A stretch of DNA of 64,000 nt, taken from a bacterium. Lineage in GTDB: Bacteria > Electryoneota > Electryoneia > Electryoneales > Electryoneaceae. The stretch spans positions 256,001-320,000 of the forward strand of contig OY769902.1 of the NCBI GenBank assembly GCA_963669175.1, in the 5' to 3' direction. Under the pieces are notes generated by a model. It saw only the letters and a program-made list of their open reading frames with translations. It did not search any database and had not been told where the DNA came from. This document shows, in pieces, positions 23,644 through 53,324 of this stretch; the first letter of the stretch is position 1, and every line of letters begins with the position of its first letter. The position numbers and the translations under genes were made by a program.

Positions 23644-23747
23644 GTCTTTTCACCTGGTTGCTACAATGTCGACCATTGTGCACGACTCCATGGGAGAGGG
23701 CACATCTTTTGACCCTGTTCGTGATACGAGCAGGAGGTCACCTGACC

Positions 23748-24185: not shown

Positions 24186-24226
24186 CTTTATCTCCACCCG
24201 TCACATGACGGTTCTTTCTTGTACAC

Positions 24227-24757: not shown

Positions 24758-24826
24758 ACCGTCTCCTTTCGCCAGCCGCTCTCCGCTACCATGCAGAGTC
24801 TCACCTGGCGAATAGTCGGGTGTTTG

Positions 24827-26386
24827 TTACAACGGAATGCAACCGTGTTTTTTCGGCGGATTGAACTCACGCTTGCCGGCCAGGGAAGCCAGACCGCGAA
24901 TAATGCGGAAACGTGTGTTACGCGGTTCGATCACATCGTCAACATATCCCATACGCGCTGCATTGTACGGGTTCGCGTACTTCCTGATGTACTCCGCTTC
25001 CTTCTCCGCAATAAACTTGGCGCGCTCCTCGCCTTCAAGATCATTTAACTCTTTACCGTATAGCACCTCAACGGCTCCGGACGGTCCCATGACGGCAATT
25101 TCGGCTGTCGGCCAGGCGTAGTTCAGATCACCACGCAGATGCTTGGAACTCATGACGTCATACGCGCCACCGTAAGCCTTGCGGGTAATGATGGTGATCT
25201 TCGGAACCGTAGCTTCGGCATAAGCATACAGAATCTTGGCGCCATTCATGATAATGCCTTCATACTCCTGCTGGGTGCCAGGCATGAAACCGGGTACATC
25301 GACAAACGTGATCACAGGAATATTGAACGCATCGAGGAAACGAATAAACGCCGCCCCCTTCCGGCTGCACTTGTTATCAAGCACACCGGCAAGCTGCGAA
25401 GGCTGGTTGGCAATGATACCGACCGATTGACCGTTGAACCGTGCAAACCCGGTAATGATGTTCGGCGCCCAGCGACGGCGCACTTCCATGAAATCACCAT
25501 GGTCTACGACAGTCCGGATGACATCCTTCATGTCATAAGGCATGTTGGCATCATCCGGGATGATGTAATTCAAGTCGTCCTCGAGACGGTCAATCGGATC
25601 GTCACAGGATACAATCGGTGTCTCTTCCGTGTTGTTGTTCGGAAGGAATGTGACCAGCTTGCGAATCAGGTCAAAGACATCATCTTCCGAATCCGCGACA
25701 AAATGCGCCACACCACTCTTGGTCGCATGAATGTCAGGCCCACCCAACTGGTCCGGGGTGACATCTTCATGGGTAACCGTCTTGACCACTTTCGGCCCGG
25801 TTACGAACATGTAACTGATATCACGGACCATGATGTTGAAGTCCGTGAGCGCCGGGCTGTAAACCGCGCCACCGGCACACGGGCCAAGAATCGCGGAAAT
25901 CTGCGGCACTACACCGGATGCCATCACGTTACGCAGGAAAATGTCGGCATACCCCGCCAAACTGAGAACACCTTCCTGGATTCTGGCGCCTCCGGAATCG
26001 TTCAACCCAATGATAGGAACCCCTATCCGGGTCGCGTATTCCATGACCTTCACGATTTTCCTGGCAAACATCTCACCAAGTGAACCGCCCCGGACTGTGA
26101 AGTCCTGGGAGAAAACAACCACCTGCCGCCCGTAAATCGTGCCATGCCCCGTTACAACACCGTCGGATAAAATCTGTTCTTCTGTCAACAGACTGTCATC
26201 ATTACGGTGCGATACAAACATGTCGAATTCTTCAAAAGAACCCGGATCAACCAACCGCTCGATCCGTTCCCGTGCAGTGTACTTACCTTTTTTGTGCTGT
26301 GCCTCGATGCGCTTTTCACCGCCACCGAGACGCGCCTTTTCACGGAGCTCTTTCAGCTCCAGCAGTTTGCGCTCAATTTCTCGCAT
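24827..26386 (-). CDS. mmdA: Acyl-CoA carboxyltransferase (methylmalonyl-CoA decarboxylase alpha-like)
   Basis: [46 protein letters not shown]. Start ATG 26386. Substrate specificity is inferred. Confidence 0.9.
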
Positions 26387-26439
26387 AATGTGCACCTGTG
26401 TCTGGTACTTGAAACAACCCAACTCACAATAAAGCTGTG

Positions 26440-26468
26440 GGTTTATCCACTCAATCAAACCATGTCAA
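26440..26468 (-). promoter_or_regulatory. Putative sigma70 promoter of the decarboxylase operon
   Basis: TTGACA-17 nt-TAAACC on the minus strand about 55 nt upstream of the mmdA start. Confidence 0.4.
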
Positions 26469-36248: not shown

Positions 36249-38306
36249 TTACTTCAGGAGAATCATCCGGTTCGTCTGGGTAAAGCTTCCGGCTTCCAGG
36301 CGATAGAAATACACACCACTCGCCAGATCGGTCGCATCAAAGGTCACTGCATGCTGACCCTGGGTATGTCCCTGGAACAGGGTGGCAACTTCACGGCCTT
36401 CAACATTGAAGACCTTCAGCGTGACCATCTCGTTGTTCGGAACAGTGAAGCTGATCTGGGTTGAGGGGTTGAACGGGTTCGGGAAGTTCTGGCTCAGGGA
36501 ATAGTCGGTCGGTGTTGCCACGGCGCCATCTTCCTGGACACCTGTGTCAAATCCGTACCATTCCATGAGATTGTCCATCAGGGTTTCGAACTGTTCGTTG
36601 CCCCTGTAGTAGGTATACCAGGTTGTGTCTTCAAGAACTGAATCCAGTTCCACGGCCCAGTAGAAGTCGAAGAGGAAGCAGGCGGTTTTGTTGTCACCAT
36701 CTTTGTAGACAGCGGCAACATCACCGATGTTTTCACCTTCGAAGAAGCCTGTCGCTCCACCGGCCGGTGTGGCAAAGTCGGTCCAGAGACCGTCCAGGTT
36801 GCCATCAATTTCTGTCGGGAGCATGGCATACGGTGTGTTTACGAAATCACCGGAAAGCGCATCGCCGTCAATGCCGTAGAACGCAGAGTCTGTCGGAGAC
36901 GGGTCGTTGACACCTTCAGAAATGCCGAAGATGTCATAAGCAAAGTCGCCAGCGGAGAAGGTTGGTGCATCTTCTTCACCGTTGGTGTAGAAGTAGTCCT
37001 GGTCGCAATACAGCAGGTTGTTTCCGGCAGTTTCCAGCCATGCTGAATACGGATCATCGCCATAATCGCGAGTCGGGACAGTGGTTGTGCCCCAGCCACC
37101 TACGATGACCAGATCCCAGCTACCACCCTCGACGGTATAGGAATCAAGACCCTTGTTGGCTGCAACATCCCACCACTCATAGCTGATCAGCCAGCGTTCT
37201 TCGAGGTAGGTGTAGAGTACATCCGGATCATCCAGACCATCATCAATCACGAGTACACCGGCATTGGGCATGCCAAGTTCAACGATTTCGAAGTTAAGTT
37301 GGTCATCAACATTGCTGTTGAAGCCAGCTTCGTCGTCTGTTGCTTCGATCCAATACTGAACGACATCACCAACGCCGACACCGAGGTCGCCCAGACTGAA
37401 GGACGCCTGGAAAATCTCATCGCCATTGTCATCTGTCATGGCGATAGTTGTCGGATCACCACCATTAACCGTAACCTTCAGGTCGGCAGTGTCAGTTGTC
37501 CAGCCATTGTCATCCACAATGTCGCACTCGACCATACAGGTCTTGTCGGTGCTGATGGTATTCGGCAACTGGTTCATGCTGCCGATGATTGGCGGGGCGC
37601 CGTTCGGATAGGAGACCTGCGCACGGATCATCAGGTCGACAATCGTACCACTGAAGTCACTGGAATAGGATCCCCAGTAATTGTCGTAGTCTTCCATCCA
37701 GGGACCGCCGAACCAAGTGTAGGTGAATCCACGGGCAGAGACATCGTCCGCCAGGGGCTGGGGCAAACCATCATCCTGAGTCTTTACCCAACCGATACCG
37801 AACATGGAGTTGTCTTCACGCCAGATACCGCCACCAGGCAGATCGTCGGGACCAAACAGGTTTTCCCAGTCGCCACTACCTTCAGCCGTGTTGTTGTACG
37901 GTCCAAAGATGACAGCGCCAAGCGGTGATTCTGTTGACGTACCACGTGGCACTGCGCGACCATTGGCGCTTACGTTTTCTTCACATGCGTCGTTGTATTC
38001 CCACATGAAAGCGCGGTAGGAACCGCCGCTGTACCACTGCTGCTGGCCGAAATACACGGAGCAGGCTGCCAGGGGTTGGAATACAACAAGCATTGTGTCA
38101 TCCTGGCTGCCGGAGCCCAGGTAATATTCCGCATCGCTGGTATACCGGCGAAGAACGAACAGGTCATCCAGTTCATTCAGCTCACCGATGACCGGACCAC
38201 GATGAGTCGGGACTTTTACCGGTTCCAGCGGAACCAGCTCTGAGGCGAAGCTCATCCCCACCATCAGGCTTAATGCGAAGAACACAATCACTGCTTTTCG
38301 GAACAT
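36249..38306 (-). CDS. Secreted acidic protein with CTD sorting domain
   Basis: Signal peptide; C-terminal LSQNFPNPFNPST...LASGVYFYRL...RMILLK; Ig-like middle domain (VQYWIEATD). Confidence 0.85.
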   Translation of the reverse strand: MFRKAVIVFFALSLMVGMSFASELVPLEPVKVPTHRGPVIGELNELDDLFVLRRYTSDAEYYLGSGSQDDTMLVVFQPLAACSVYFGQQQWYSGGSYRAFMWEYNDACEENVSANGRAVPRGTSTESPLGAVIFGPYNNTAEGSGDWENLFGPDDLPGGGIWREDNSMFGIGWVKTQDDGLPQPLADDVSARGFTYTWFGGPWMEDYDNYWGSYSSDFSGTIVDLMIRAQVSYPNGAPPIIGSMNQLPNTISTDKTCMVECDIVDDNGWTTDTADLKVTVNGGDPTTIAMTDDNGDEIFQASFSLGDLGVGVGDVVQYWIEATDDEAGFNSNVDDQLNFEIVELGMPNAGVLVIDDGLDDPDVLYTYLEERWLISYEWWDVAANKGLDSYTVEGGSWDLVIVGGWGTTTVPTRDYGDDPYSAWLETAGNNLLYCDQDYFYTNGEEDAPTFSAGDFAYDIFGISEGVNDPSPTDSAFYGIDGDALSGDFVNTPYAMLPTEIDGNLDGLWTDFATPAGGATGFFEGENIGDVAAVYKDGDNKTACFLFDFYWAVELDSVLEDTTWYTYYRGNEQFETLMDNLMEWYGFDTGVQEDGAVATPTDYSLSQNFPNPFNPSTQISFTVPNNEMVTLKVFNVEGREVATLFQGHTQGQHAVTFDATDLASGVYFYRLEAGSFTQTNRMILLK

Positions 38307-38643: not shown

Positions 38644-39549
38644 TTATAATCCCTCTATTGCGTCTCTTAACTCGATCAGGAACGCGCCGAAATTGGTCGC
38701 GTACATGTACTCAATGGTAAACTGTTGTCCCTGGGTTGGAATGGGCGCACAACGGAAAGAGATCTCGTTGTCACCCGGGACGAAATCCATGATCTCACAC
38801 TCTTCACCGGTTGTTGTCGAAACAGAAACAGGATAGACGAGGTTGGTGTTGGTTGAATGAAGGGTGGCAACACCGGTTAACCAGGTTTCTTCCTCAAGCA
38901 CAACCTCAACTGTATCCAGGTCTGTCTGGAGTGTGGTAGATCCCGAGATAAAGGAACCGGTGATCTCATCTACGATGAACATGGCAGAAGAGAACAGGTC
39001 GTCTGCATAATACGCTTCCGCCATGACCACCTTGATCTGCATGGCGTTATAGGTGCCTACCCAGCGATGGTTAAACGAAGGATCGTATTCAAGGCAGGTT
39101 TGCGCGTACAGGACTGCGTTTTCGTAGTCACCGGTAGCCAGTTCAGTAGCCGCCATCCCGGCATAGGCTTCCGCACACAGCGTAACCGAATCGCTGGCCG
39201 TTATCAGCAGCTCTTCCACCATAACGGTGCTGAGATTGATCACGTTGCTCAGGTTGTTGTAGGCATTGACCAGTTCGTTCTGCTGTGTGAAGGCGTATCC
39301 CATACCGAGATAGGCTTCCAGGTTCTTCGCATCTGCGTTGGCAGCTTCCGAGAAAATGCTGATCGCATCTTCGAAATCACCCGAGTTATACGAAGACCAC
39401 CCTTCGGATATCAGCCCGTCTACGGTTACCGGCGGACCTTCAGGGATATCATCGCTCTCATTGTCACAGCCAGTGAATGCAAGCAGTAAAACCAGCATGA
39501 TTAATACTGCCATCACCCGAATTGTTGTGTCTGGAATATGTCGCATCAT
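38644..39549 (-). CDS. TPR-repeat lipoprotein
   Basis: Lipobox FTG-C, TPR motifs (GWSSYNSGDFEDAI, EAYLGMGYA, EAYAGMA). Confidence 0.82.
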   Translation of the reverse strand: MMRHIPDTTIRVMAVLIMLVLLLAFTGCDNESDDIPEGPPVTVDGLISEGWSSYNSGDFEDAISIFSEAANADAKNLEAYLGMGYAFTQQNELVNAYNNLSNVINLSTVMVEELLITASDSVTLCAEAYAGMAATELATGDYENAVLYAQTCLEYDPSFNHRWVGTYNAMQIKVVMAEAYYADDLFSSAMFIVDEITGSFISGSTTLQTDLDTVEVVLEEETWLTGVATLHSTNTNLVYPVSVSTTTGEECEIMDFVPGDNEISFRCAPIPTQGQQFTIEYMYATNFGAFLIELRDAIEGL

Positions 39550-39563
39550 CTCCTCCAGTCCGT

Positions 39564-42500
39564 TTACTTCACCAGAACCATTTTCTTGACATCCTGGAAG
39601 CTGCCGGCATTCATCCGAACGAAATAGACTCCGGAAGAAAGCGGCGCTCCCTGCTCACTACGGCCATCCCAGAACACCCGGTGTGAACCGAAGCGCATGG
39701 GTTGATCCACCAGTGTAGCTACCTGGCGACCGAGCACATCATAGATGGTCAGGTTTACCTGGCCGGTGTGCGGTACCTGGAAGCCAATGGTCGTGGTGGG
39801 GTTAAACGGGTTGGGATAGTTTTGTTGCAACGCGTACTCTGTCGGAACCAGAAGGTCAGCCGGTGTGTCGCCAGGCGAACCGGCCATCACCTTGAAGGTT
39901 CCCAGTTTGCTGACCGGGACCGAGATCGTACCATGATCCCTGTCGATAGCGCCACCGACATATACCCACTCGTCATGGTAGAGCATGTATACGCCGACAG
40001 GCTGGGTTCCTGCCGTTTCAACATCGTATTGAATGGTCAACCAGGCCGGATCATGAAGTTCTGCATCATCCGCATCAATACGGAAGGTTTTGCTGACTGT
40101 TGTCCGCTGTTCGTCAAGGGGAAGTGTGCCGATCTTGGCAACCAGTGGCTCCGGGACTTCATCATCAAGCGTGATCACACTTGCCCAGACATTATGGTCA
40201 AATGCGGCAGCCGTTGTTCCGAGCTGAAGATGATCGCCCAGTTCGAGCCGTCCCGGCGCTCCGGACGGGAGCAGGTTCATGCCAACTTCAACAACCGGGG
40301 TGGAAATTGCTTCTCCATTGGACAGGTAGCCATCCACATGCCAGTACATTGTACTCTGTTCTGACATCCAGCCACTGGTTTTGTAAACCACGAACTTCAC
40401 AGAATCCGTAGAGGTCAGGTAGCTGACGGATGTAAAATTCTCGGCTTCACTGAAGATGGCCAGCGTGTCGCCACCATCCTCTTCACTGGTGGCATAGACG
40501 AACGGCACTTCCACACCGTTGGCGTCATAGATACGACGACCGGATACGACGTAGAAATCAAGTTTCAGGTCTGCAACGGGATTCTGCGCAACAAACAACC
40601 GGGCATATGCAGTGTTCCCCGTTTCGTTCGTCACCATGAAATCGCCGCCGCCAGCCGCGATAAGAACCCATGTGGGGAAGTTGGTGCTGTCGGCATAATC
40701 AGGCCCGAAGATCCAACCATCACCCGGACTCATCGGCACAGCGCCGCACTTCTTTTCATCATCCCAGTTGTCGCCGCTGAAGTCCTGCACCTGGTACATG
40801 TCACCAAGCGAGGCGTCCAATGCTGAGGCATACAGGTTCACTTTGCGGAACCTGATCGTTCCTGCGTCCTCACCGGCAAAGACGGTAAGGTTGTCAGTAG
40901 CGCCATCAACCAGGATATTCGGATCGTATTCACCGTAGGCGCTGAAATAGTAGCTGAAGCCCCAGTCCGGGCAGTCAGCGCTGTATGGGGGACGATCCTT
41001 GGCGCTACTTGGCTTCCATTTGAATTGTGTACCAAGCACACCGCCGCCGGCATTGACGTTGGTCAAAGCGTAAATGCGATTATCATCACCATACGTGGTA
41101 TCCAGCAGGTTTGCAGTCGCATAGTCAAGGAAGATGTCAATCATTTCCTTGCCCTGCAGGTATGACGGCAAGCTGCTTTGATGATCTGCAATCACAGTGC
41201 CGATACCCTCCATGCCAATTCTGCGGGAGGTGGCAATAGCGCTGATCATGTCATCGCCGCCATACTTTTCCCACAGGTAGAGCATGAAGCTATAGCAGAA
41301 CATGGCGTCCGCACGGCTGTTCTGGTCCGAACCGATAAAGGTCAGAACATTGTTGCCCGCGAGACGCTTGGCTTCGCCCTGGCCATAGAAATTGGGCGGG
41401 CTGTCCACAATGAACTCTGAGACATAAGCAAGCCCGACCTGAATCCACTGCTCTTCAAACTGATCCACCTTGTAAATCAGGTAGTTGGTGAACAGGTTGG
41501 CTATAGCACGTAAACCCCGATTGGCCATCGTGGTGTCCGCCAACTGCCATTCGCTGTCGTTGTCATACCACTTATAAGCCATTTCGCCATGGATATAACT
41601 CTGCGGATAGCAGTCAAGGACAACCAGTTCAGCTTCGTTGCTATAATCGTCGTCACTCCCGGGCAAATCATCCGGACGGAAATACCCATGTTTCCAGAAC
41701 TGGGCTTTCGAGTCGTTCCGTCCATCCATGCCGAAGTCGTCGTATACGTCTGTCAACAGGAAGCTGACCTTTTCGGACAACACACTTTCGTTTCCGCCTG
41801 CCATGATGTTGATCAGCTTCTGGTAGGCGCCCATTGTGCTGTCTTTGGGGATTGCATCTTCAAAATAACTCACACAGGCTTCAACTTCAGCGACTTTCAA
41901 CGGCGCAGTGTCCATGCCGGACTGGTTATAAAGCCATGCCGTATTATCCTGCGAATCGAACCGTTCCACGTTGTTGAAGTAAGGAATGGCGCGCCACATG
42001 AAATTGTCAGCATACCAGTAGGCATGATCTGAAATGGCACGAATTGACGCTTGAATCTTCCTGGTATCGGTCGGGAAAGTTTCCCAGGCCTTTACCCAGA
42101 AATTGCGCCCGTATCCCAGCAGGATCTGAGCGGATACCGTATCAGCCGTCAGCGTATCGTTATCCAGAACATCGGAATAAGCCAGTGAACTGACTCCATC
42201 CCAGTTCATCAGGAAACCGGCTTCCATTTCAGCTTCAAACGGGAACTTCAGGTCGTCATCCAGGTTGTTCAGCGCTTCACGATCCGCGCTGGATACGTAA
42301 ACCCACAACCTGTCATCATCACCGGTTATCGCGCTATCCGGGGTTGACAACGTGATCCCGGCCAGGGTCAACTTGGCGAAATCGACCAGCTCTTCCTGGA
42401 GGGAAGTAGTCGCCTCAAGCACGAGCTTGCTGTCGTAAAAATCATACCAGACATAAAGCGGGATTGGAGGTGTTGGATCTGCTGTGTAAGTAATCGGTAG

Positions 42501-44177
42501 ACCGCTGATCTCACGGTTTCCGTTCAAACGGGTCTGTTGAAGGATACTGTAAGGATCAACATGAAGTGTTGCTGATGCGCGGTCATCGTGGCTTTCGATC
42601 AGGTTCCGGTCATGCTGATTCAACGTAACCTGCAATTCACGGTTCCCACCAACACGTGTCGCTTCTCCACCTGTCAGGGTAATAATATCATCACCCATGA
42701 CAAAACTGATGCCGGTAAGCTCTACTTCGATCTGCAAGCGAACATCAAATACGATAAGAAGCTGGTTGGAATAAGCATTATAACTTGCCGCAGATGCTTC
42801 CGGGGCTTTATTGCTGCTTGATTCCGGCTCAGTCATCAAATCGCTGATGGTGAGTACGTTCCCATTACCGTAATCACTGACAATCGCGTTCTTGTTGACC
42901 TTAACCCGCAGGAAATGGCTAGGGTTAGACACAAGGTTGTCAATCATGTCTTCCAGGGCATGGGCATCGGGAACCAGCAATTCTATCTGGGCGCCCAGGT
43001 TGCCATCCACCAGGGTGGGAGAACCACCGTTGAGGTAGAACGAGTCTGCCACAACCGTAGTAGTGCCGTCCGTCGAGTATTCCTCGATCCAGATTTTCGG
43101 AATAACGATGTTGTAGGCAATTTCCGTATCCAGTTCCTGGTTGAACCAGATGGTCAGCTTATTGCTGCCCAAGTCATAGGACGCAGAATCGGCTGAAAGA
43201 GGTTCATCATCCGGAACCACCTCAACCGCAAGATCCGTCACCGGCAACACTGAGTTGTAGTCTGTATCGACAAATGTGTACGTCGGGCAGGTTACTGTCA
43301 GCGTTGACAGATCCAGAAGTTCAATCTGGTAGCGGAACGGAATGGGAAGATTGAGTTCCAGTACGGTTGAATCCATCTTGGTAATGTCATCAGCCGAACT
43401 CAGTGAATACTCGTTCCCTTCAGCATCTTTAAACAGAATCTGTGTCATCTGGACATTCTGCTCCATGTCCAGCACACCATTACCGTTTCTGTCTTCTTTC
43501 TGCGCGAAGGTATTATCCAGGACACCATTCCCCGGACCGGGCCAACTGGGATTCAGCGGATGTGCTTCCGCGACATCTTCAGCGATCTGGTCAAACTGGA
43601 CAGTACGATCAAATTCAAAACGGATGGTGTTCGTAAGCGCATTGTACTGCACATCAACCAGTTCTGTCGGATCGTTGTCTGCATCGTAATCAAGATCAAC
43701 CCAACCGGGCTCTGCGAACTCGTTATCCGGATTAATGACCGAATAACGTGGCAGGTATACTCGCATCGCATCATGGCTTAACATGGATTCGATTGTCTTG
43801 GTATCGGTATAATCATTACCCCAGCAATCGAACGGATGCTCGGTGCCATCAGCATCTGTGAATGTCCAGTTATCAATCACGCCACCAAAAATCAGCTTGA
43901 TCAGCACCGTTGTGCTCTGATCGGTGGTGTTCATGACTTCACCGCCACGGATCGCGTAATCTTCGCTTCGCCCACCGTCATCGTCGTCTATCAGAATGCC
44001 TTCAAAGATCACATCGCCTGGGCGTGTCATAACTTCCTGGTCGAACGTGATGCTCAGAATATTGGTGCCCTCGTTGTAGGACGCGCTCTGAGCCACGGGC
44101 GCTGCTGCGTGCCCGCATGCAGCCATCGCGAAAAGGACCGCAAGGACCAACGCCCGGTTTTTCCATGTCAACGACAT
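39564..44177 (-). CDS. Giant secreted protein: Ig-like repeats, degenerate M30-like peptidase domain and FlgD-type CTD
   Basis: About 5 'ASYN..TN.L.I.FD' repeats, peptidase-like motifs (see findings), LQQNYPNPFNPTT...WDGRSEQG..LSSGVYFVRM...KKMVLVK. Confidence 0.85.
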   Translation of the reverse strand: MSLTWKNRALVLAVLFAMAACGHAAAPVAQSASYNEGTNILSITFDQEVMTRPGDVIFEGILIDDDDGGRSEDYAIRGGEVMNTTDQSTTVLIKLIFGGVIDNWTFTDADGTEHPFDCWGNDYTDTKTIESMLSHDAMRVYLPRYSVINPDNEFAEPGWVDLDYDADNDPTELVDVQYNALTNTIRFEFDRTVQFDQIAEDVAEAHPLNPSWPGPGNGVLDNTFAQKEDRNGNGVLDMEQNVQMTQILFKDAEGNEYSLSSADDITKMDSTVLELNLPIPFRYQIELLDLSTLTVTCPTYTFVDTDYNSVLPVTDLAVEVVPDDEPLSADSASYDLGSNKLTIWFNQELDTEIAYNIVIPKIWIEEYSTDGTTTVVADSFYLNGGSPTLVDGNLGAQIELLVPDAHALEDMIDNLVSNPSHFLRVKVNKNAIVSDYGNGNVLTISDLMTEPESSSNKAPEASAASYNAYSNQLLIVFDVRLQIEVELTGISFVMGDDIITLTGGEATRVGGNRELQVTLNQHDRNLIESHDDRASATLHVDPYSILQQTRLNGNREISGLPITYTADPTPPIPLYVWYDFYDSKLVLEATTSLQEELVDFAKLTLAGITLSTPDSAITGDDDRLWVYVSSADREALNNLDDDLKFPFEAEMEAGFLMNWDGVSSLAYSDVLDNDTLTADTVSAQILLGYGRNFWVKAWETFPTDTRKIQASIRAISDHAYWYADNFMWRAIPYFNNVERFDSQDNTAWLYNQSGMDTAPLKVAEVEACVSYFEDAIPKDSTMGAYQKLINIMAGGNESVLSEKVSFLLTDVYDDFGMDGRNDSKAQFWKHGYFRPDDLPGSDDDYSNEAELVVLDCYPQSYIHGEMAYKWYDNDSEWQLADTTMANRGLRAIANLFTNYLIYKVDQFEEQWIQVGLAYVSEFIVDSPPNFYGQGEAKRLAGNNVLTFIGSDQNSRADAMFCYSFMLYLWEKYGGDDMISAIATSRRIGMEGIGTVIADHQSSLPSYLQGKEMIDIFLDYATANLLDTTYGDDNRIYALTNVNAGGGVLGTQFKWKPSSAKDRPPYSADCPDWGFSYYFSAYGEYDPNILVDGATDNLTVFAGEDAGTIRFRKVNLYASALDASLGDMYQVQDFSGDNWDDEKKCGAVPMSPGDGWIFGPDYADSTNFPTWVLIAAGGGDFMVTNETGNTAYARLFVAQNPVADLKLDFYVVSGRRIYDANGVEVPFVYATSEEDGGDTLAIFSEAENFTSVSYLTSTDSVKFVVYKTSGWMSEQSTMYWHVDGYLSNGEAISTPVVEVGMNLLPSGAPGRLELGDHLQLGTTAAAFDHNVWASVITLDDEVPEPLVAKIGTLPLDEQRTTVSKTFRIDADDAELHDPAWLTIQYDVETAGTQPVGVYMLYHDEWVYVGGAIDRDHGTISVPVSKLGTFKVMAGSPGDTPADLLVPTEYALQQNYPNPFNPTTTIGFQVPHTGQVNLTIYDVLGRQVATLVDQPMRFGSHRVFWDGRSEQGAPLSSGVYFVRMNAGSFQDVKKMVLVK

Positions 44178-44232: not shown

Positions 44233-45219
44233 TTAGAAACGGAAGTGGACGCTGAATCGGTGGACGTAATCCAGTATGTAGTAATCGCTTACGGCATAAT
44301 CGATACCGAAGCCCTTCCACTCGGCGCCCACACCGGCCGACAACCCGAGCGTGTCATGGTTGAACGTGTATCCACCGCGCAGGTAGAACATCTTGTTGAA
44401 GCCGTATTCAGCCCCAAGATTGATGCGTTCAAGGTTGTCGTTGGGATGTTCCAGGTCCGCAGCGATCTGCAATACATGCGGCCCCTGGTTGTAGGGTATG
44501 GCTGACAATCCCATTTTGAAGGTCATGGGATACTGGTAGGGCAGGTAATCAGTCTGTGATGCTGAACGCTGGCCGTTATCATAGTCGTAGTAACCGCCGC
44601 CAAGCTGAACTTCCGGTCCAAAGTTGCGGATGTTCATGCTCAACATGACCGTCTTCCACTTCGTATCGTACATCGTGCCAACATCGACAACCCAGTTGGT
44701 AGCCACGCTACCGTCCAGGTCTTCACTGACTACCTTGAGATTAGCGCCGAAACTGAATTTGTCTGTCAACCTGGTAGCTGCTGAAACACCGGCAAGAAAG
44801 TCGGTCACTTCGAAATACTGGCCTGTACCTTCCGGCTGCATAACGGTTGTGCGTTCTATCTCGCCTGAATTCAGGGACGCTGCGAAAGCGCCCAAGGCCC
44901 AGCTATCGTTAAAACTGTGGCTTCCGGCGACAATACTGTAGTTGATGTCTGCCAGCCACTGAATATGTTCCACCATCACCCTGCTGTTCGTAGCATATAC
45001 CAACCCGGCAGGGTTCCAGAACATGCTTGTTTCATCATTACTGATCGCACTGAACGCATTCCCGATGCCGACACCCCTTGCACCGATCGGGATGTTCAGA
45101 AACAGGGTTCCGGCAGTTCCGACTTTGGCAATGTCTCCGCTTTCTGCCAATGCCACGCCGCCGGATGCGAACAGGATCGCCAACCCGATGGCGACGGCAT
45201 GCTTCAAAAGTGTACGCAT
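44233..45219 (-). CDS. PorV/PorQ (UPF0164, FadL-like) family outer-membrane barrel
   Basis: FLNIPIGARGVGIGNA...FWNPAGL, LGAEY...LRGGY, IDYA...HRFSVHFRF. Confidence 0.87.
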   Translation of the reverse strand: MRTLLKHAVAIGLAILFASGGVALAESGDIAKVGTAGTLFLNIPIGARGVGIGNAFSAISNDETSMFWNPAGLVYATNSRVMVEHIQWLADINYSIVAGSHSFNDSWALGAFAASLNSGEIERTTVMQPEGTGQYFEVTDFLAGVSAATRLTDKFSFGANLKVVSEDLDGSVATNWVVDVGTMYDTKWKTVMLSMNIRNFGPEVQLGGGYYDYDNGQRSASQTDYLPYQYPMTFKMGLSAIPYNQGPHVLQIAADLEHPNDNLERINLGAEYGFNKMFYLRGGYTFNHDTLGLSAGVGAEWKGFGIDYAVSDYYILDYVHRFSVHFRF

Positions 45220-45242: not shown

Positions 45243-47717
45243 TTATCGCTTAATGAGGAATTTGCCGATGTGCTTGTCTCCATCGGGCGTTTCCACGACG
45301 TAGATGTACAGACCGGATACAACTTTCTGGTTGTTCCGGCTGATCATATCCCAGTACTCCGCCCCGGAAGTAGCATCCTCATGCTCAATTTCCTTGACCA
45401 GGTCGCCAGTCAACGTGAAAATGCTGATCTTGCACAACGGTGGCAGGAAGAAGAACGCCAAACGGTCTTCGTAACGGGATTCGAACAGGGCTGTACCTTC
45501 GTACGGGTTCGGCACGACCCTGACATCACTTGCTTTGCGGGGAGTGCCGTCATAGCCGTCATCCATCGTACCGGTTCCGTCATCAGTTTTGACGATTGCA
45601 TCCGGACGCGGAATAACCGGGTCCGGTGCGCCGGCAAGCGTCTTGCGGTAGTTTGATTTGGCAGACTCAATGGAAGACAGCCCGAAAGTAGCGATTTTGT
45701 CCGGGTCGTAGGCGACTACCGTGTAGTAGTACTTCAACCCGTTAACCGGTTCCGGAATGTCATGGAAGAATGTGATCGGGTTGCCGGATTCATCAACACC
45801 CATGAAATCGCCACCACGATCCGTGTAGGTATTGCGGACATCCGGTAAATCAACCAGGACGGTATCGTAGCCACCAGCCGCGATCGCTTCCTGGTAACCA
45901 TCTTCGAAATACGTGATAAGTTCACCGTTCACCCGGATCGGATTCACCATGTTTCCGTCCGTATCCTTTAAAAGAACGGGTTCATCGCGATTGTCGAAGG
46001 CGGCGATAATCTGCATGTTCTGCGCGTTGTACAAAGACCGGTATACCTTATAGCCTTCAAAGTCCACCGCGCCCAGGAAATTATCGATCTCGTTCTCCGC
46101 CGACTTGTCCCAGACCATATCCACGGCACGATCGGCGCCTGAATAATGCAAATCAGGAATAGGCGGTGGAATCGGCAGCAGGAAATGTTTGTCGGAGGCA
46201 ATGGCCTCATTGCTTGCCCCGGTAAATCCGGCTTGCGCTTCCACCGGGGATATAACCGGATCGCCAATCAGTGAATCAGGGCCCTGGTAATACGCGATGA
46301 CCGCGTTATCCAGGATTTCACGCATCCCCCCAATTCCCTTGCCAATACCGGTCACCATGACGAACTTTTTCGTTTCGCCATCCGCCCAACTGGAGAAGGG
46401 ACCGCAGGAAAGCATATAGCGGTAGTCGAATACTGGCGCGCCCGCTCCGTAGCGGAAGGGGTGAGGCATGAACTTGATCCCGTTCGACAGCGAATGGGTT
46501 CCTGTCATGTATTCGTACTTTTCACGATCACTGCCCGGGTCTGATTCCCAGTTCCACCACTGGTGGGAATAGGGACGGGGCATGGTGTCGTCTTCAGTGA
46601 GATAGAAAGGATCCTGCGGGATGTAAATCATCCGGGTTCCGATGAAACCGTCAACCGGCGTGGCATATGTTCTTTCACCGGTATCGTTTTCACCACTCTG
46701 CGGATAGTCACCGTCATACATGTAGCTGGTATTACGGCTGATCAGGTATCCCTTGAGTGTATCTCCGGTCGAAGCCTTTATCAGAACCTGGCCGTCAAAA
46801 TCGGTTCCCGGCTGACCGTAAATGGCGGGACCGTCTTCCACTTCATAAATCTGGTATTCATCCCAGACACCATCCGGTTCCGGGTCAAAGGACTCGGGCA
46901 TGTCTGCGTCTTCATACCCGTTTACGTATGGATTGAAAGGATTGGCCCGTTCCCAGCCCCAGACATCGTAGCCGGTATCGCCATCGTTGTCGAGATCAAG
47001 CGGGTCTACCCAGTCCTGGGTGAACATGTTTTCTTCTGCACCGGTCGCGGAACGCGCCCAGCCATCGTAATCCACCAGGTCGTCAATGTTCGGCTGATCC
47101 GGGTCGCCGCCCTCGCCGGCGCCGCAGTCATTGTCAAAAACCCACGTGACAAAAGCGCCGTTGATCGTGCCACCACTGACATTTTTCACTTCCATCAGAA
47201 TGACGAAGAAGTCGTCGTATTCCGGGATAGACCAGGTCAGCGCACGCTGGCTCATCTCGAAGCCAATCGGCGTATGACCGGAATAGTCCGTCATGTCATC
47301 ATAACGAACCCAGCCATCAAGAATGGACTTCGGACCGGCGCCGAAGTAGTAATACGATCCTTCGGTCGGGTCCAGCTCGTAGTTGCCGTAGTCTGCATGG
47401 CTGCAAAGGGGCTCACCGCCCACCAGCGCCGCAATCCAGAAACGACCTTCCCAGATATAGTTGATCGATGACCCACCCGGCCATTCACCGGAAGGCAGGT
47501 TCTCGTTCGGTTCACCGTAGTTCCCGAAATTGGAGATCGCTGTCCACAGGTTGCCTACGTCATGGACCTTGTACGTAGGATTGGGACGTGCAGATGTCTC
47601 CCTCACCGGTCCCTTGGGTCCACCCGATCCGGGCAGGACCGCCGCGATCAGGGGGGCGCTCAGGAGAAGGAGCGCAACGGTCACGGCGACAAGCGTGCGT
47701 AAACGCAAAGAATTCAC
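45243..47717 (-). CDS. Secreted protein with variant CTD, typical TBDR-cluster partner
   Basis: GTG start after GGAGG; HDVGNL...SNFG...EWPGGS; DFEGYKVYRS; YYYTVVAYD; VRVVPNPY...ISIFTLTGDLV...WD.....VVSGLYIYVV...GKFLIKR. Confidence 0.83.
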   Translation of the reverse strand: MNSLRLRTLVAVTVALLLLSAPLIAAVLPGSGGPKGPVRETSARPNPTYKVHDVGNLWTAISNFGNYGEPNENLPSGEWPGGSSINYIWEGRFWIAALVGGEPLCSHADYGNYELDPTEGSYYYFGAGPKSILDGWVRYDDMTDYSGHTPIGFEMSQRALTWSIPEYDDFFVILMEVKNVSGGTINGAFVTWVFDNDCGAGEGGDPDQPNIDDLVDYDGWARSATGAEENMFTQDWVDPLDLDNDGDTGYDVWGWERANPFNPYVNGYEDADMPESFDPEPDGVWDEYQIYEVEDGPAIYGQPGTDFDGQVLIKASTGDTLKGYLISRNTSYMYDGDYPQSGENDTGERTYATPVDGFIGTRMIYIPQDPFYLTEDDTMPRPYSHQWWNWESDPGSDREKYEYMTGTHSLSNGIKFMPHPFRYGAGAPVFDYRYMLSCGPFSSWADGETKKFVMVTGIGKGIGGMREILDNAVIAYYQGPDSLIGDPVISPVEAQAGFTGASNEAIASDKHFLLPIPPPIPDLHYSGADRAVDMVWDKSAENEIDNFLGAVDFEGYKVYRSLYNAQNMQIIAAFDNRDEPVLLKDTDGNMVNPIRVNGELITYFEDGYQEAIAAGGYDTVLVDLPDVRNTYTDRGGDFMGVDESGNPITFFHDIPEPVNGLKYYYTVVAYDPDKIATFGLSSIESAKSNYRKTLAGAPDPVIPRPDAIVKTDDGTGTMDDGYDGTPRKASDVRVVPNPYEGTALFESRYEDRLAFFFLPPLCKISIFTLTGDLVKEIEHEDATSGAEYWDMISRNNQKVVSGLYIYVVETPDGDKHIGKFLIKR

Positions 47718-47739
47718 AATAAGTTCCTCCCCCACAAGT

Positions 47740-50700
47740 TTAGAAGTCAAACCCTATACCCATTTGGAACATGCGACCACGCTGGTAATACTGCGGGTCG
47801 TTGTACTTACCGTCCACATCGTAATCCGGGGTGCCATCGTTGTCGGCATCGTTCTGAGTGTACCACGCAGTATCCGCGTTCGTCTGGAAGTACCGTTCAT
47901 CTATGTTCTTCCGGTCAAACAGGTTGTAGACCTGCAGGTACACGTACATCCCGAAATACTGAGAGAAGTTGTGACGTTTCTGGATACGAGCGTCAAACGA
48001 CAGCGTGTAGGGAAGCCGTTGGTCGTTGATGGGTGGATCCTTATCCTTGGCAGGACTGGAGTAGGGTAACCCGCTGCCATAACGTCCAATCAGGGATAAG
48101 CTGACTTGCTCAAGTGGTTTGTCAAGATAAGAATACCCAGAAATGCGGGTATTCTTGGGAATCATGAACATGATGTTTCCGTACACGGTATGGCGCTGAT
48201 CCCAGTCGAGATAGCTTTCCGTGGTACGGATAACATTGCCGGCCCAGGCGTTTTCGTAATTCTGACGTGCGCTTGAAGCCTTACCCTTGGCAATCGAATA
48301 GCTGTAGCTGATGTTCGTAGAATAGAAGCTGCTGAACCGTTTTTCCAGGCTCAACTCGAAACCACGCACATTGCCGTAGTCAAGGTTGATGTACAGGCCA
48401 TACCAGTTGCGTTCGTTGTAGAACACCTGGCGTGTATCGGTCAAGCCGGTGATATCCTTGTAAAAACCGGTCGCTACGATAGCCGTGTTGGGATTGAACT
48501 GGTGACGCAGGGTCAGCTCGTAAGCTGTTGTGCGTTCCGGTTCAAGGTTCGGATTCCCGACAATCGGGAAGGCGCCGGAAAAGTCCCAGTTCACATTCGT
48601 AAACGCGAAGTTAAGAATCGGAATCTGGAAGTTCTTGCTGTAGTTGAACGACAGCAGGTCAAACTCGGTAATCGGGAAAGCCACACCCAAACGTGGTCCC
48701 CAGTAATACTTGGGATCAATACTGGTCGGATCTTTCACCTCACCGCCGATGCTGGCATCTACTACCGGGTCGGTAATGTCGGCCGGATAATCGCTCCAGT
48801 TGATGTCGAAGACATCCAGACGGACACCGGCATTAATAACCATGCCTTCAAATTCCATCTTGTCTTCAGCCCAGAAACCATATAACCGTGGCTTCGCCGA
48901 GAAGTTCTGACCATACACATTCCCGCCGGATGCCATATCGACATCATGGTCAAACAGTTCCATGAATTTCAATTCAAAACCGGCCTTCATCTGATGGTAC
49001 TTGTGCATCTGGCTGGTAATGGAACCGTTGAAGGTATTGATGATCTTGTAGTCGTTGTTCCAGCGGGCACGGTTGTAGGTCAAACCGCTGCCATAGGTGT
49101 AAAAATCATCGTTGTCCTTGGAATTGCCAAACGGCACGTCTTCCCAGGCCATCCATGTGCTCACAGCGCCCTTCTCTGAAGCATCGATGTAACCGTTGTC
49201 ATTGTCATCGGTAAAGAGATCATGCCTGGGGCCATATACATCCCAGTCCCAGATCTGGTTACCGTTCAGATCTTCATATTCATACACACCATTCTGGTTG
49301 AAGTCGAAGTAGTAGAAAGAAACCTTGTCATCCACTTCTTCGGCAGCGAGGTAGTTGCTGAACATGCCGAGTGAATCTGCGGGGATATCGTTGATGTCGG
49401 TATAACGAGGTTCAAGATCCAGCTCGCCGTTACCATTCGCATCCTCATTTATATATTCGTTGGTGTTATAGTGCATTTCGGTTTTATAACGAGAATAACC
49501 CAGTTCGTAGAAAGTTTTCTGGTTCAACGTGTGATTCCACTTTACCGCTAATTGCTCCGTATGATGAGTGAAGAACGGAACATGGTCCAGCATACGGAAA
49601 GCATCCAGGTTGTAATTGGAGTTCAAGTCTTCTGTATCCACCACCCCATCACCGTCGAGATCAACTTCATTGCCGTCAATGATCCCGTTGTGGTTCAGGT
49701 CTTCCGTGTCCACCTCGCCGTTGCCATACCATGGATCGCCGTTTGCATCCAGGTAAACATAGCCGGGGTCAAGGGTAGTACCGTCAGCCAGATAGGATGG
49801 CTGGTATTCCAGGAGGGCATCTTCGTTGGTGGTTTTGCTCCACATGTGGTTGTAATAACTGTACTGGGCGTTCGACACTGTACCACTGAAGGTCAGCTTC
49901 AGTTTTGGTGTGATCTTGTAGGTCAGCTTGGCGAAACCACTCGTAAGCGTGGAGTCGTCATTGTCGAAACGTCCACGTGTGTCGAAGTACTGACCGGACA
50001 TCAGGAAATACAGCTTGCCGGCATCCTTGAAGAAAGGAATCGGGCCACTGAGAGATCCCTGCCAGTCCTGTAGCCTGTCACGTTCGCCGATGAAGGTCTG
50101 GCCACCGCCCATGTCATTGGTACGAAGCGACATGTTGCCGTTAATACGATCGCTGCCTTCTTTGGTTACCTGGTGGACAACACCGGAAAGCGCATTGCCG
50201 TATTCTACAGACTGACCACCGGTGATCACACTGACTTCTTCGAACGCGACAGCAGGAACAAACCCTTCATAGGTTCCTGTCATCGGATCGATAAACGAAG
50301 CGCCGTCAATGATGTAGTTGACCTCTGTTGCACGACCACCGCGGAAATTGGCCCCGACAGCGCCAACGGTCAGCTTGACCACTTCTTTGATGTTCTCGAC
50401 CGGCAACATCGCCAGGTCTTCCGAGGTACGTGTGGTACGGCTGTCCGTAGCATCTTTGCGGATCATGGGACGTTTTGAAACGTAAACCACTTCTTCCGCT
50501 TCAATCACGGTTGCTTTTAGTTCGAAATCCACGCGTGTGGTTCGGTCCGTAGCCACATCAACATTGCTGTATGTGACCGCCCCATGTGTCACTTCGGAAG
50601 CTTTTACTTCGTAGATTCCCGGTGGAATATTCAGAATAAAGAACAACCCATCCAGGTCCGATGTAGCTCCCATAGTCGTGCCGAGAATCACCACATTGAC

Positions 50701-50832
50701 CATGGCCAGTGGTTCTCCCGTATCGGCATCAACTACCTTTCCAACGATTTTCCCTGTACCGGCCGCCAGGACGACTCCGCTCAGGCATAGAAGTACAAGG
50801 AGAACAGAAAACGAGTAGCGCAAACTTCTCAT
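47740..50832 (-). CDS. TonB-dependent receptor (N-terminal carboxypeptidase-regulatory-like domain; Ca-loop insertions)
   Basis: GKIVGKVVD.DTGEPL, FRGGR..EV.YIIDG, GG...EYGNALSGVV, PRLGVAFPIT, GNPNLEPERT..YE, GIGFDF. Start likely ATG 50832. Confidence 0.92.
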   Translation of the reverse strand: MRSLRYSFSVLLVLLCLSGVVLAAGTGKIVGKVVDADTGEPLAMVNVVILGTTMGATSDLDGLFFILNIPPGIYEVKASEVTHGAVTYSNVDVATDRTTRVDFELKATVIEAEEVVYVSKRPMIRKDATDSRTTRTSEDLAMLPVENIKEVVKLTVGAVGANFRGGRATEVNYIIDGASFIDPMTGTYEGFVPAVAFEEVSVITGGQSVEYGNALSGVVHQVTKEGSDRINGNMSLRTNDMGGGQTFIGERDRLQDWQGSLSGPIPFFKDAGKLYFLMSGQYFDTRGRFDNDDSTLTSGFAKLTYKITPKLKLTFSGTVSNAQYSYYNHMWSKTTNEDALLEYQPSYLADGTTLDPGYVYLDANGDPWYGNGEVDTEDLNHNGIIDGNEVDLDGDGVVDTEDLNSNYNLDAFRMLDHVPFFTHHTEQLAVKWNHTLNQKTFYELGYSRYKTEMHYNTNEYINEDANGNGELDLEPRYTDINDIPADSLGMFSNYLAAEEVDDKVSFYYFDFNQNGVYEYEDLNGNQIWDWDVYGPRHDLFTDDNDNGYIDASEKGAVSTWMAWEDVPFGNSKDNDDFYTYGSGLTYNRARWNNDYKIINTFNGSITSQMHKYHQMKAGFELKFMELFDHDVDMASGGNVYGQNFSAKPRLYGFWAEDKMEFEGMVINAGVRLDVFDINWSDYPADITDPVVDASIGGEVKDPTSIDPKYYWGPRLGVAFPITEFDLLSFNYSKNFQIPILNFAFTNVNWDFSGAFPIVGNPNLEPERTTAYELTLRHQFNPNTAIVATGFYKDITGLTDTRQVFYNERNWYGLYINLDYGNVRGFELSLEKRFSSFYSTNISYSYSIAKGKASSARQNYENAWAGNVIRTTESYLDWDQRHTVYGNIMFMIPKNTRISGYSYLDKPLEQVSLSLIGRYGSGLPYSSPAKDKDPPINDQRLPYTLSFDARIQKRHNFSQYFGMYVYLQVYNLFDRKNIDERYFQTNADTAWYTQNDADNDGTPDYDVDGKYNDPQYYQRGRMFQMGIGFDF

Positions 50833-51464
50833 GAGGCCACCTTTCCGTAACATGAAATGACCCTGTAAAGAAAAAAACTGGCTTAAATCACCTGGACTAA
50901 ACGGTGATCACCTGTAATGCAGGGAAAAGGGGGAGGCGTGTAGCGAAATAAAGCAAGTGTGCAGGAGGTGCATTAAAATAATACACCCCTGAAAACAGAG
51001 TGAAGCAGCAAATCAGGGCGCGTCTCGTCAAACTCTTAAAAAACAGGCGCACTTGTCCTAGCAGTCGCTTCCTCCAGTCGCCGGCAAAACTGGTATAAGC
51101 TTTGCTCAATAGTTTTTGGGTATGTCTGTCTTGTCAGCAAGCACCAACCATTAATACTTTACTAACGTGAATCCAGCAAATCAAGTGGTTTAATACAATA
51201 TTAACAGAAAGTAATTCCTGTGTCTGGTTTTTTCCCCAACCTTGTTTTTATTCTTCCCTGTTGCCACTTTATACCCTAAGTTATTGATAAATAATCAACT
51301 TTGGGGAAAGTATCATTTTGAGCACTTCGACACTGCCATTCTCTGTCTCACAAACAGGAACATACCTTTCATTTTTAACGTGGAGCTTTTGACAGAAAGT
51401 TTCTGTATATTGCTTACCACTTGAGTGTCAAAGAAACATCAGGATCATTTGCAAACATTGTCCG

Positions 51465-53324
51465 ATGACTGACTTCATCCTGGAAACAAATGCTGCTGTG
51501 CCAGATATTGAGTGGAAGCATGAACCTTTCACTGAGCAGCCCTGGTCCCTTGCCACAACTCTGAAGACGTACCGTTACCAGGGAAAGGGCTGGCGTTTTC
51601 ATGGTGTTATTCTTCCTGATGCCTTGCATACTCTTGCGGAGGACAGCAATTGGTTCATGATTGTATATGGCCATCCTTATGCCTCTGCCCACTGGCAACC
51701 TGACAGGATGGGGCCAACGCCATCCGGACGCTTGCAGGCTTCTCAACTCCTGGCCTTGTGGATTGATCACGGTGCAGCTTGTACACAAAGAATCGCCGGT
51801 GATTACGCCCTGATTATCCTGGAAAAAAATACACTTCAGATTCAATTGCTGGGTGGGATGCAGCTACTGAGATTTGTGTATTATCATGCAGCAGGCTATA
51901 CCGTACAAGTAACTACCTCCCTGTATGAAGCGGCACGACTGGCCGATACTGCCCCGAAACCTGATCCTGCAACCCTGATTGAAACAGCTATCTTTGGGCA
52001 TTCCCTCGGTGAAAAGACCTTGTGGAAGGGATACAGTTCCCTGTTACCCGGCGAGCATGTTCAGCTTTCCTATACAAATTTCTTCCGGAAATTCTGGATT
52101 AACATGTCCGACAATTTCCACAATATTAAATCTCTGAACCTTGACCAGTCCATCGAAGCGGGGGCGCTGGCCCTGTCCAACTGCGTTGCTTCGATGTCCA
52201 AAGATATACAGAAAATGAGAATCCCTCTTTTCCTTGGCTTCGATTCACGGTTGATTCTTTCCATGATGTCCCAGGGGAAAACGTCCTTGAATGGCATCAC
52301 CCTTGGCGGCGCGGATATTCTTGACCAGACACAAGTAGCCAAGATCGCCTCTTCCGTATCACTGCCGTTGACCGAAGTACCCCTGGACGATGAATTCGTC
52401 AATTATTTCCCGGACTTCGGCCTGCATGTTATTAAACTGGTTGATGGTTTCTACTCGTTTGAGCGCTCTTTCAATCCCTACATGATGTACAAGACCCGTG
52501 ATCTGTCCAACTTTGTCATCACCGGGTCTATTGGCGGCGATCTGTTACAGCCATTCCGTAAAATCGGGACCATGGTAACTGAACTGGGATTCAAGATTCT
52601 TACTGCACACAGTCCCGTGGATACCATGAACAGCCTGTTCTCGGAAATTGTAGCGGAGTGTCCGTGGATTCGTGAAGAGATTTTCAACAGCTATTTTGAT
52701 GAAGCGTTGTCTTCCTATTGGGATCTGCTGGGCGCGTTGAGCAATGTGTTTGAACCGCACGTTCGCTTTTACTATTTCATCCTGAAAGATTCTATCCGCA
52801 AGTGGTATGGCTCCCAGATCATGTCCGAACGCACGTTTGGCATCCACTTGACCCCGTTCTGGGATGATGAGTTTGTCCGTGTGGCGCTGCAATGCCCCTT
52901 TACCCCGATTACCAGTACCACCTCAGGGCCTTCGGTGGGCAATACCATGAAGGCGTTCCAGTTTTATTCCAAGTTGATCGAGAAATACAATTCTGCGTTG
53001 TTGGGTGAAACAACGAAATATGGTTTCGCGCCTGCAGACCTGCTGAGCCCGATGGGACGTCAAAAAGTCCGCATGCAGCATGTCTTTAAAAAATGGTCGG
53101 TTTCTTCACACAAACCCGGCCTGCCCTACGAAAAATGGGACCGTGAATTCCTGTGGAAAATGCTGCCACGCCTCGAGCTGAACGACGAGTTGTTCAACGT
53201 GAACATCGTTGATGATTTTGAGGAAGGTTCCTGGAAGGCGGATCGTCTGCACTACGCCCGTACCGTCTCACAAGCCATGACCCTGGCCCTCTGGAACAAC
53301 GGCCTGAAAGACCCCTGGTTGTAG
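51465..53324 (+). CDS. Asparagine synthase-related protein (degenerate motifs)
   Basis: GDYALII, LLPGE, IPLFLGFDSRLIL (cf. LSGGLDS), ITGSIGGDLL, TPFWD. Confidence 0.7.
   Translation: MTDFILETNAAVPDIEWKHEPFTEQPWSLATTLKTYRYQGKGWRFHGVILPDALHTLAEDSNWFMIVYGHPYASAHWQPDRMGPTPSGRLQASQLLALWIDHGAACTQRIAGDYALIILEKNTLQIQLLGGMQLLRFVYYHAAGYTVQVTTSLYEAARLADTAPKPDPATLIETAIFGHSLGEKTLWKGYSSLLPGEHVQLSYTNFFRKFWINMSDNFHNIKSLNLDQSIEAGALALSNCVASMSKDIQKMRIPLFLGFDSRLILSMMSQGKTSLNGITLGGADILDQTQVAKIASSVSLPLTEVPLDDEFVNYFPDFGLHVIKLVDGFYSFERSFNPYMMYKTRDLSNFVITGSIGGDLLQPFRKIGTMVTELGFKILTAHSPVDTMNSLFSEIVAECPWIREEIFNSYFDEALSSYWDLLGALSNVFEPHVRFYYFILKDSIRKWYGSQIMSERTFGIHLTPFWDDEFVRVALQCPFTPITSTTSGPSVGNTMKAFQFYSKLIEKYNSALLGETTKYGFAPADLLSPMGRQKVRMQHVFKKWSVSSHKPGLPYEKWDREFLWKMLPRLELNDELFNVNIVDDFEEGSWKADRLHYARTVSQAMTLALWNNGLKDPWL

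Follow-up and report, generated by a model that had tools for sequence, protein, structure and literature searches.

An M30-like pseudoprotease domain in a predicted stalked surface protein from a conserved TonB-dependent transporter gene cluster of Electryoneota

In SusCD utilisomes, RagAB, TbpAB and HmuYR, the genes behind that of a transporter encode surface proteins with the potential to capture its substrate. Lugdulysin, a zinc metallopeptidase of family M30 from Staphylococcus lugdunensis (PDB 7BB8 and 7BB9), is an enzyme of ~410 amino acids. Zincins without an intact motif, such as inactive ADAMs and CLCAs, are also known, and the accessible sections of a survey of these substituted zincins describe motif breakdown as common and the role of the inactive proteins as unknown or poorly understood (PMC3650047). 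Here we describe a pseudo-M30 domain in a 1537-aa protein of the bacterial phylum Electryoneota, referred to below as the giant protein. Its gene (39564..44177, an open reading frame (ORF) call with an intact frame) lies in a stretch of 64,000 nucleotides, the window (NCBI GenBank assembly GCA_963669175.1, contig OY769902.1, positions 256,001 to 320,000); coordinates are window positions, and all features are on the minus strand unless marked (+).

The domain has its fold and motif order in common with lugdulysin, but lacks both His residues, the catalytic Glu, the third-ligand Glu and the Tyr that is mutated in 7BB9; it also carries a GRND insert and sits in a large T9SS (type IX secretion system) cargo protein. 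The nearest sequence relatives with an intact site are active M30-like peptidases of 520-1270 aa (proteins P0061-P0077 except P0066; loci L012-L021, L023 and L025), which have the motifs W..EG, LYLxEKYGG and A(N)xLD in common with it and several of which bear T9SS sorting domains. Compared with substituted zincins in general, an entire prokaryotic clade is dead here and is tied to a fixed transporter operon; compared with SusCD, RagAB, TbpAB and HmuYR, the candidate binder has a pseudoprotease head and belongs to the T9SS cargo proteins, and the operon includes a gene for a PorV/PorQ barrel. Judged by its name only, NCBIfam NF052323 (T9SS-dependent M6-like inactivated metalloprotease) embodies the same idea in a different peptidase family. 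Membership in it was rejected: the giant protein scores 25.7 bits against a cut-off of 600, through its sorting domain only, and the domain alone gives no match.

A lugdulysin-type domain without its catalytic residues

The original prediction, made from the sequence alone, had placed a dead metalloprotease domain resembling M30/hyicolysin enzymes at 41100..42070, citing a series of motifs that are indeed all present in the giant ORF, in the order given and with the frame intact. The location holds, but the true span is slightly wider (residues 685-1052; 41022..42125). Searches with the single domain sequence matched nothing in Pfam, NCBIfam or the PDB sequences; PF10460 matched neither the domain nor its intact-site relatives, and an Atlas cluster with PF10460 scored just 0.77. 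A phmmer search against 1.84 billion representatives yielded 67 proteins, and 16 of the 17 weakest matches (520-1050 aa) contain AHE(F/L)xH...W.(N/D)EG in exact register with NLFTN...WIQVG of the giant protein. A profile built from 58 sequences, all site-less, finds lugdulysin at E = 1.3e-24, although a 14-sequence profile missed it; because another profile that included active members is partly circular, we relied on the site-less one.

An AlphaFold2 model of residues 685-1195, built on a 75-row alignment that included 16 active rows, reached a predicted local distance difference test score (pLDDT) of 90.9 and a predicted template modelling score of 0.91. It was compared with known structures in two ways, by a Foldseek-seeded comparison and by an independent search across 48,161 chains. 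The model matches lugdulysin 7BB8 with Z = 25.2 and a root-mean-square deviation of 2.6 Å over 311 aligned residues (Foldseek E = 1.1e-12), and the next unrelated structures follow at Z = 11.2-11.7, with M1 aminopeptidases, collagenases and thermolysin all at Z = 12 or less in both searches; TFIID chains were also among the fold matches. A first model from 14 rows had a pLDDT of only 60.6, yet it too ranked lugdulysin at the top. The modelled structure thus confirms a lugdulysin-type M30 gluzincin fold for residues ~685-1052, and both the zincin-like fold and the M30/hyicolysin-like identity that the original prediction had proposed are borne out by the Z score and the site-less profile.

The former HExxH motif reads N894-L895-F-T-N898 (41484..41498; codons of N894 at 41496-41498, L895 at 41493-41495 and N898 at 41484-41486), and the third zinc ligand Glu is replaced by V914 (41436..41438), as placed by alignment and codon position. 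The earlier reading of NLFTN for HExxH and of QVG for NEG is therefore correct, with all four codons inside 41413-41517. In the motif R955-A-D957-A958 (41304..41315), A958 stands where active relatives have Tyr and aligns with Y315 of lugdulysin in the 7BB9 mutant (E242Q Y315F); we infer an active-site role of Y315 from the title of that mutant structure. Since the Tyr equivalent is A958, five catalytic residues are gone rather than four. P0003, a relative with 91% identity, also shows N-L-x-x-N and V, which excludes a sequencing error.

To place these substitutions within the family, we built an alignment of 95 domain rows, of which 75 are proteins (with the fragment P0034 excluded) and 20 are locus ORFs that differ from these proteins. 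All five catalytic residues (H, E, H, E and Y) are kept in 28 of 28 active relatives. The remaining 67 rows, among them P0036, a fragment without the first three catalytic positions, keep none (27 rows), one (25), two (7) or three (8) of the four canonical residues, and in only 1 of the 67 are all three ligand positions occupied by H, D, E or C. The Tyr equivalent to Y315 is present in 15 of the 67 site-less rows versus 28/28 actives, and the third-ligand Glu, V914 in the giant protein, is retained in 37/67. At position 898, where the second His survives in 5 rows, the residues are K (19), R (16), E (11), Q (8) and H (5), so that Lys or Arg replaces the His in 35 of 67; a trend from His to Lys or Arg in substituted zincins is already noted, and left unexplained, in the accessible part of PMC3650047. 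These results suggest that catalysis has almost certainly been lost in the giant protein's domain. With an M30-like build and a negative outcome in every catalytic test of membership, the domain is therefore best classed as a non-peptidase homolog of M30.

Eight site-less proteins retain the first His, the catalytic Glu and the third-ligand Glu with Lys at the second His (HExxK; P0033, P0042, P0045, P0048, P0053, P0054, P0058 and P0060), as do P0084, a named Marinimicrobia member, and P0120; these possibly represent the least decayed state and the best place for residual metal binding. P0052 has an HExxH string at residue 906, on the Tyr-bearing helix and not on the zinc helix, which is probably due to chance because its close relative P0047 lacks it.

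A maximum-likelihood tree of 92 rows, computed after removal of the catalytic columns and the insert and with one short and two long-branch rows omitted, separates 60 stalk-type dead members (support 100/99), 4 propeller-type dead members (100/98) and 28 actives (100/99). Loss of the site is a trait of the whole stalk-bearing clade and not of the giant protein alone; because the tree is unrooted, one or two losses of activity are both possible. Two more searches with full-length profiles added 19 further rows with long matches (two are probably duplicates of loci L009 and L011), 15 of which have the pseudo-M30 domain and none of which has the full site. The giant protein has 13 full-length relatives, 31-91% identical within the domain, and no stalk was found among the 16 active M30-like protein hits tested. 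Named members are Ca. Electryonea clarkiae (P0008, L008), Ca. Marinimicrobia (P0030, P0050, P0084 and P0086) and KSB1 (P0031); the propeller-type dead member L022 comes from Cloacimonadota.

Selection and shifted constraint

The pseudo-M30 domain is under purifying selection. Among seven pairs used for the ratio of nonsynonymous to synonymous substitution rates (dN/dS), L005-L007 alone is clearly unsaturated (dS 0.63), and there the ratio is 0.050 for the domain (bootstrap confidence interval 0.029-0.076) versus 0.109 for the stalk. For the giant protein and L001, where dS is 1.9 and near saturation, the ratios are 0.089 and 0.114, respectively; the other five pairs are saturated or nearly so. 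In both pairs the domain also has a lower dN than the stalk, and mean identity among 12 close orthologs is 47% in the domain, 41% in the stalk and 36% in the region that precedes the sorting domain. The earlier proposal that a dead M30-like domain is maintained by selection is thus supported by the fold, the alignment, the tree and dN/dS. As to whether the substitutions themselves are fixed, the purifying selection is there, but the substituted positions vary freely and constraint has moved to other residues.

The five catalytic columns, whose relative rates are 0.12-0.13 among actives, evolve at 0.54-0.89 in the dead clade of 61 rows, where the median rate is 0.89. Sites that have become slow in the dead clade include R955, D957, E921, Q859, D814, G819, N821, R691, R713 and F701. 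Two of them belong to the GRND insert (G819-D822; 41712..41723), which lies directly before the HGYF strand and is specific to the stalk-bearing dead clade: R820 is present in 45/67 and N821 in 51/67 site-less rows, and the insert is a gap in 28/28 actives.

Charges at positions 898 and 914, the former second His and third ligand, have opposite signs in 41 of 66 rows and the same sign in 1, compared with 22.8 and 13.6 after shuffling; the pair is mostly K/R-E, with E-K or D-K in ten rows. After correction for kinship under three codings, the median P values of this covariation are 0.031 (borderline), 0.22 and 0.375, and the giant protein's own pair is neutral (N/V). Because only one coding is borderline and the giant protein itself has an uncharged pair, we offer it as no more than a suggestion that a salt bridge has taken the position of the zinc between the helices.

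The giant protein and its six-gene cluster

The giant protein consists, from its N-terminus, of a signal peptide, a stalk of five repeats, the pseudo-M30 domain, a PPC-like domain, an Ig/ZU5-like region and a T9SS type A sorting domain. The only curated Pfam and NCBIfam families that match it are the T9SS type A sorting domain and a FlgD-like domain, both C-terminal. The stalk (residues 25-684; 42126..44105) is acidic (116 D/E versus 32 K/R) and comprises five related repeats of ~115-155 aa whose hidden Markov models cross-match. The original prediction had called it Ig-like: the related repeats lean that way, as does a Big_5 cluster to which Atlas points with a score of 0.89, below its lead threshold of 0.9, but the giant protein's own stalk has no Big_5 match in Pfam. 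Distant relatives of the giant protein carry Big_5, and the repeats are probably of beta-sandwich or Ig-like type.

C-terminal to the pseudoprotease, a beta-sandwich (residues ~1065-1185; 40623..40985) shows structural likeness to the PPC/collagen-binding domain of clostridial collagenases, with Foldseek probabilities of 0.94-0.99 and E values of 0.004-0.009 (1nqj: probability 0.99, TM(target) 0.57, E = 9e-3) and Z = 5.7 to 3jqw; the likeness of this modelled domain is weak to moderate. Residues ~1320-1440 (39858..40220) form a probable ZU5-like domain, placed through relatives: PF00791 (ZU5) is found in P0057 and L022 at E = 0.001-0.002, under the cut-off, and ZU5 has no Pfam match in the giant protein itself. 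The T9SS type A sorting domain (39576..39818) scores 31.5 bits with PF18962 (cut-off 27) and 36.5 bits with TIGR04183 (cut-off 23), and the giant protein is accordingly predicted to be secreted and displayed at the cell surface.

The giant gene is the fourth of six co-oriented genes, which encode, in order, a TonB-dependent transporter, an 835-aa protein, a PorV/PorQ protein, the giant protein, a TPR lipoprotein and a 685-aa protein. A scan of GTDB genomes gave 25 loci, of which 11 are close orthologs, 12 are active M30-like genes that lie in unrelated surroundings and 2 are dead members of the propeller type. The six genes occur in the same order in 10/10 orthologous loci that span the region; the eleventh orthologous contig begins at the giant gene and carries the last two genes. 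None of the 12 active M30-like loci lies inside such a cluster. No SusD or active-peptidase family from Pfam or NCBIfam was matched among the six genes, and the cluster thus has no conventional lid protein.

The transporter (47740..50853; PF00593 and PF07715, with an N-terminal CarboxypepD_reg domain) is unusually conserved, at 60-82% identity over the 10 loci. It contains seven Dx(D/N)x(D/N)G motifs resembling calcium-binding sites, one of which, ED.NGNG.LD, recurs once in the giant protein's stalk (residue 229). A SusCD-type locus was considered and rejected: TIGR04056 gives 37.1 bits against a cut-off of 368, over the N-terminal part only, and there is no SusD among the six genes. The 835-aa conserved secreted protein (45243..47750) has a weak sorting domain of type B/PorZ-like kind (PF13585, E = 0.006; NF052228, E = 1.6e-4; both under the cut-off). 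At 57-84% identity over 10 loci its conservation exceeds that of the giant protein, and it may be the core partner of the transporter. Its Atlas matches, at 0.97-0.98, are all to unnamed clusters, commonest in Fidelibacterota; it has no PDB match and no Pfam domain besides the weak sorting signal. In L024 a dead domain is joined to a region homologous to this protein (35% identity over 466 aa). The transporter gene of L010 shifts frame near its end (4183-4186), and the homolog of the 835-aa protein is interrupted in L003 (6184-6291); both are possibly assembly artefacts.

Directly downstream of the 835-aa gene, the PorV/PorQ-family outer-membrane barrel (44233..45219) matches NF033709 with 198 bits (cut-off 90). 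Dedicated PorV-like barrels have been proposed to hold uncleaved T9SS cargo at the surface, with genes usually clustered with those of the cargo, according to the accessible part of PMC10202324; by analogy, the pair formed by the 835-aa protein and the PorV/PorQ barrel would fit this proposal. The TPR lipoprotein (38644..39549) has generic TPR hits and a lipobox whose GC is invariant in 12/12 rows; a TPR lipoprotein gene also follows the propeller-type dead gene of L022 in Cloacimonadota. The last gene (36249..38306) encodes a 685-aa T9SS type A cargo with a sorting domain, which is the only part of it that matches a PDB chain.

No Rfam family was detected in the 64-kb window, hence no cobalamin riboswitch, and promoter and terminator scans gave counts at or below chance (12 versus 17.7 and 11 versus 14.4). 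A link to the Bacteroidota BAM complex was sought and not found, as far as the accessible part of PMC12611786 goes. Upstream of the cluster, a 619-aa protein with a weak match to asparagine synthase (glutamine-hydrolysing) is encoded divergently from the transporter (51465-53324 (+)), an arrangement also present in L001. Further genes of the window encode a 1675-aa protein with 16 PKD repeats (53580-58607), preceded by a protein with FecR and Ig domains (58620-60950), and, at 22498-26458, a Na+-transporting decarboxylase beta subunit and a carboxyltransferase, which would fit a Na+-pumping fermentation of amino acids or organic acids.

Possible roles of the dead domain

A strongly conserved dead domain encoded beside the gene of an outer-membrane importer suggests binding rather than cutting. 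We propose that an M30 gluzincin lost catalysis early in a clade of the Fibrobacterota-Chlorobiota-Bacteroidota (FCB) lineage and was retained as a binding module. The type IX system would export the giant protein, which would then stay attached to the cell surface within a six-gene module centered on one TonB-dependent transporter, with the five-repeat stalk keeping the pseudo-M30 and PPC-like head away from the membrane. The head would grip a polypeptide, either a whole protein or fragments that other secreted proteases of the cell have released, through the former cleft, now lined with new polar residues, and the captured polypeptide would be concentrated for the transporter. The absence of metal, the polypeptide ligand and the hand-over to the transporter are parts that we infer; capture for the transporter, which the original prediction had also put forward, we base on the gene order, the PPC-like neighbor domain, the lack of a SusD and the way of life of one named relative. 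That relative is Ca. Electryonea clarkiae, whose genome holds the six-gene module (L008), and for which the accessible sections of PMC9324843 describe a lifestyle on proteinaceous matter, very few glycan-degrading genes and many proteases with signal peptides. We give the whole mechanism, a metal-free pseudoprotease gripping polypeptide at the stalk tip and concentrating this ligand for the operon's transporter, a rough probability of 0.45.

Several observations weigh against this mechanism. The former catalytic columns stand at the 23rd-50th rate percentile in the dead clade and, because these rates are near the median, do not form a conserved ligand surface; the newly conserved residues could equally pair with each other in salt bridges inside the domain, and the cleft could be plugged by the GRND insert. 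No PDB homolog of the transporter was found to indicate its substrate. The gene order is seen within a close clade that includes one named genome. Moreover, a second dead group (P0055, P0057, P0066; L022:1-2679; L024:196-4434) has BNR/beta-propeller N-termini and neither stalk nor GRND insert.

A serious alternative is that the domain is a structural scaffold, which binds itself or a fellow subunit of its surface complex (the 835-aa protein, the 685-aa protein, the TPR lipoprotein or transporter loops), and never a substrate. TAF2, which uses an aminopeptidase fold as a scaffold, is a comparable case, and the TFIID chains among the fold matches point the same way. A scaffold would account for the drift of the catalytic columns, and for a possible salt bridge, as well as polypeptide capture does; it would also suit the fixation of new polar residues, the continued linkage of all six genes, and the occurrence of a TPR lipoprotein after the propeller-type gene of L022. 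However, the PPC-like domain and the long stalk suit outward reach more than packing, the L022 lipoprotein matches in the N-terminal TPR part only (profile positions 22-91 of 311), and the excess of opposite charges, read as a salt bridge replacing zinc between the helices, is weakened by the kinship correction and by the neutral pair of the giant protein itself.

It is more doubtful that the giant protein acts as an adhesin or surface coat, with a head that binds protein films, particles or cells or serves as a decoy for protease inhibitors or phages, and with an operon shared for the sake of export or regulation. An acidic repeat stalk with a terminal binding head and a T9SS signal is adhesin-like in architecture, the same kind of head occurs on different N-termini, and inactive ADAM zincins are described in the accessible text of PMC3650047 as acting in cell-cell contact or as possible decoys. 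The fixed place in a transporter-led operon at 10/10 loci does not favor this role, and a domain that evolves more slowly than its stalk is atypical for a variable adhesin or decoy.

That the domain is still an enzyme or metal site, with H830 on the edge strand acting together with E921, D822 or E908, or with some non-metal chemistry, is improbable. H830 is kept in 30 of 61 dead-clade rows, and is thus replaced in half of the clade; in eight rows the first His and both Glu residues remain while the second His has become Lys, but the giant protein has N, N and V at the ligand positions, and the close clade has no invariant His or Cys. The Lys or Arg found at the second His in more than half of the site-less rows is not expected to bind zinc, as stated in the accessible part of PMC3650047. 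Neutral decay or sequence error, which the wide variation of the former catalytic residues might recall, is already refuted by the selection and family data, namely intact frames, dN/dS of 0.05-0.09, clade-wide loss, new conserved sites and a confident fold.

Beyond polypeptide capture by the giant protein, one might see the cluster as a protein-utilization machine of uncultured FCB phyla that does not depend on SusD, in which the stalked pseudoprotease replaces the SusD lid and the zinc is replaced by an inter-helix salt bridge of flipped polarity in some lineages; this wider view is a speculative one, which we hold to be unlikely in full. Because dead zincins as such are already known, another one is less of a surprise. 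A search of the open-access literature, with most subscription papers outside its scope, found no published account of this dead M30 stalk family or its operon, and what appears to be undescribed is an M30 family that is dead throughout a clade, is mounted on a stalk of repeats and is encoded in a fixed transporter/T9SS operon of uncultured FCB phyla.

Little is known about the means by which proteinaceous matter is captured in uncultured FCB phyla such as Electryoneota, Marinimicrobia and KSB1. The family offers a clean, soluble and well-modeled case, in which a dead M30 clade is combined with a fixed operon and with few newly conserved residues to mutate. It also calls for caution in genome-based ecology, where annotation by fold or profile could tally such dead proteins as secreted peptidases.

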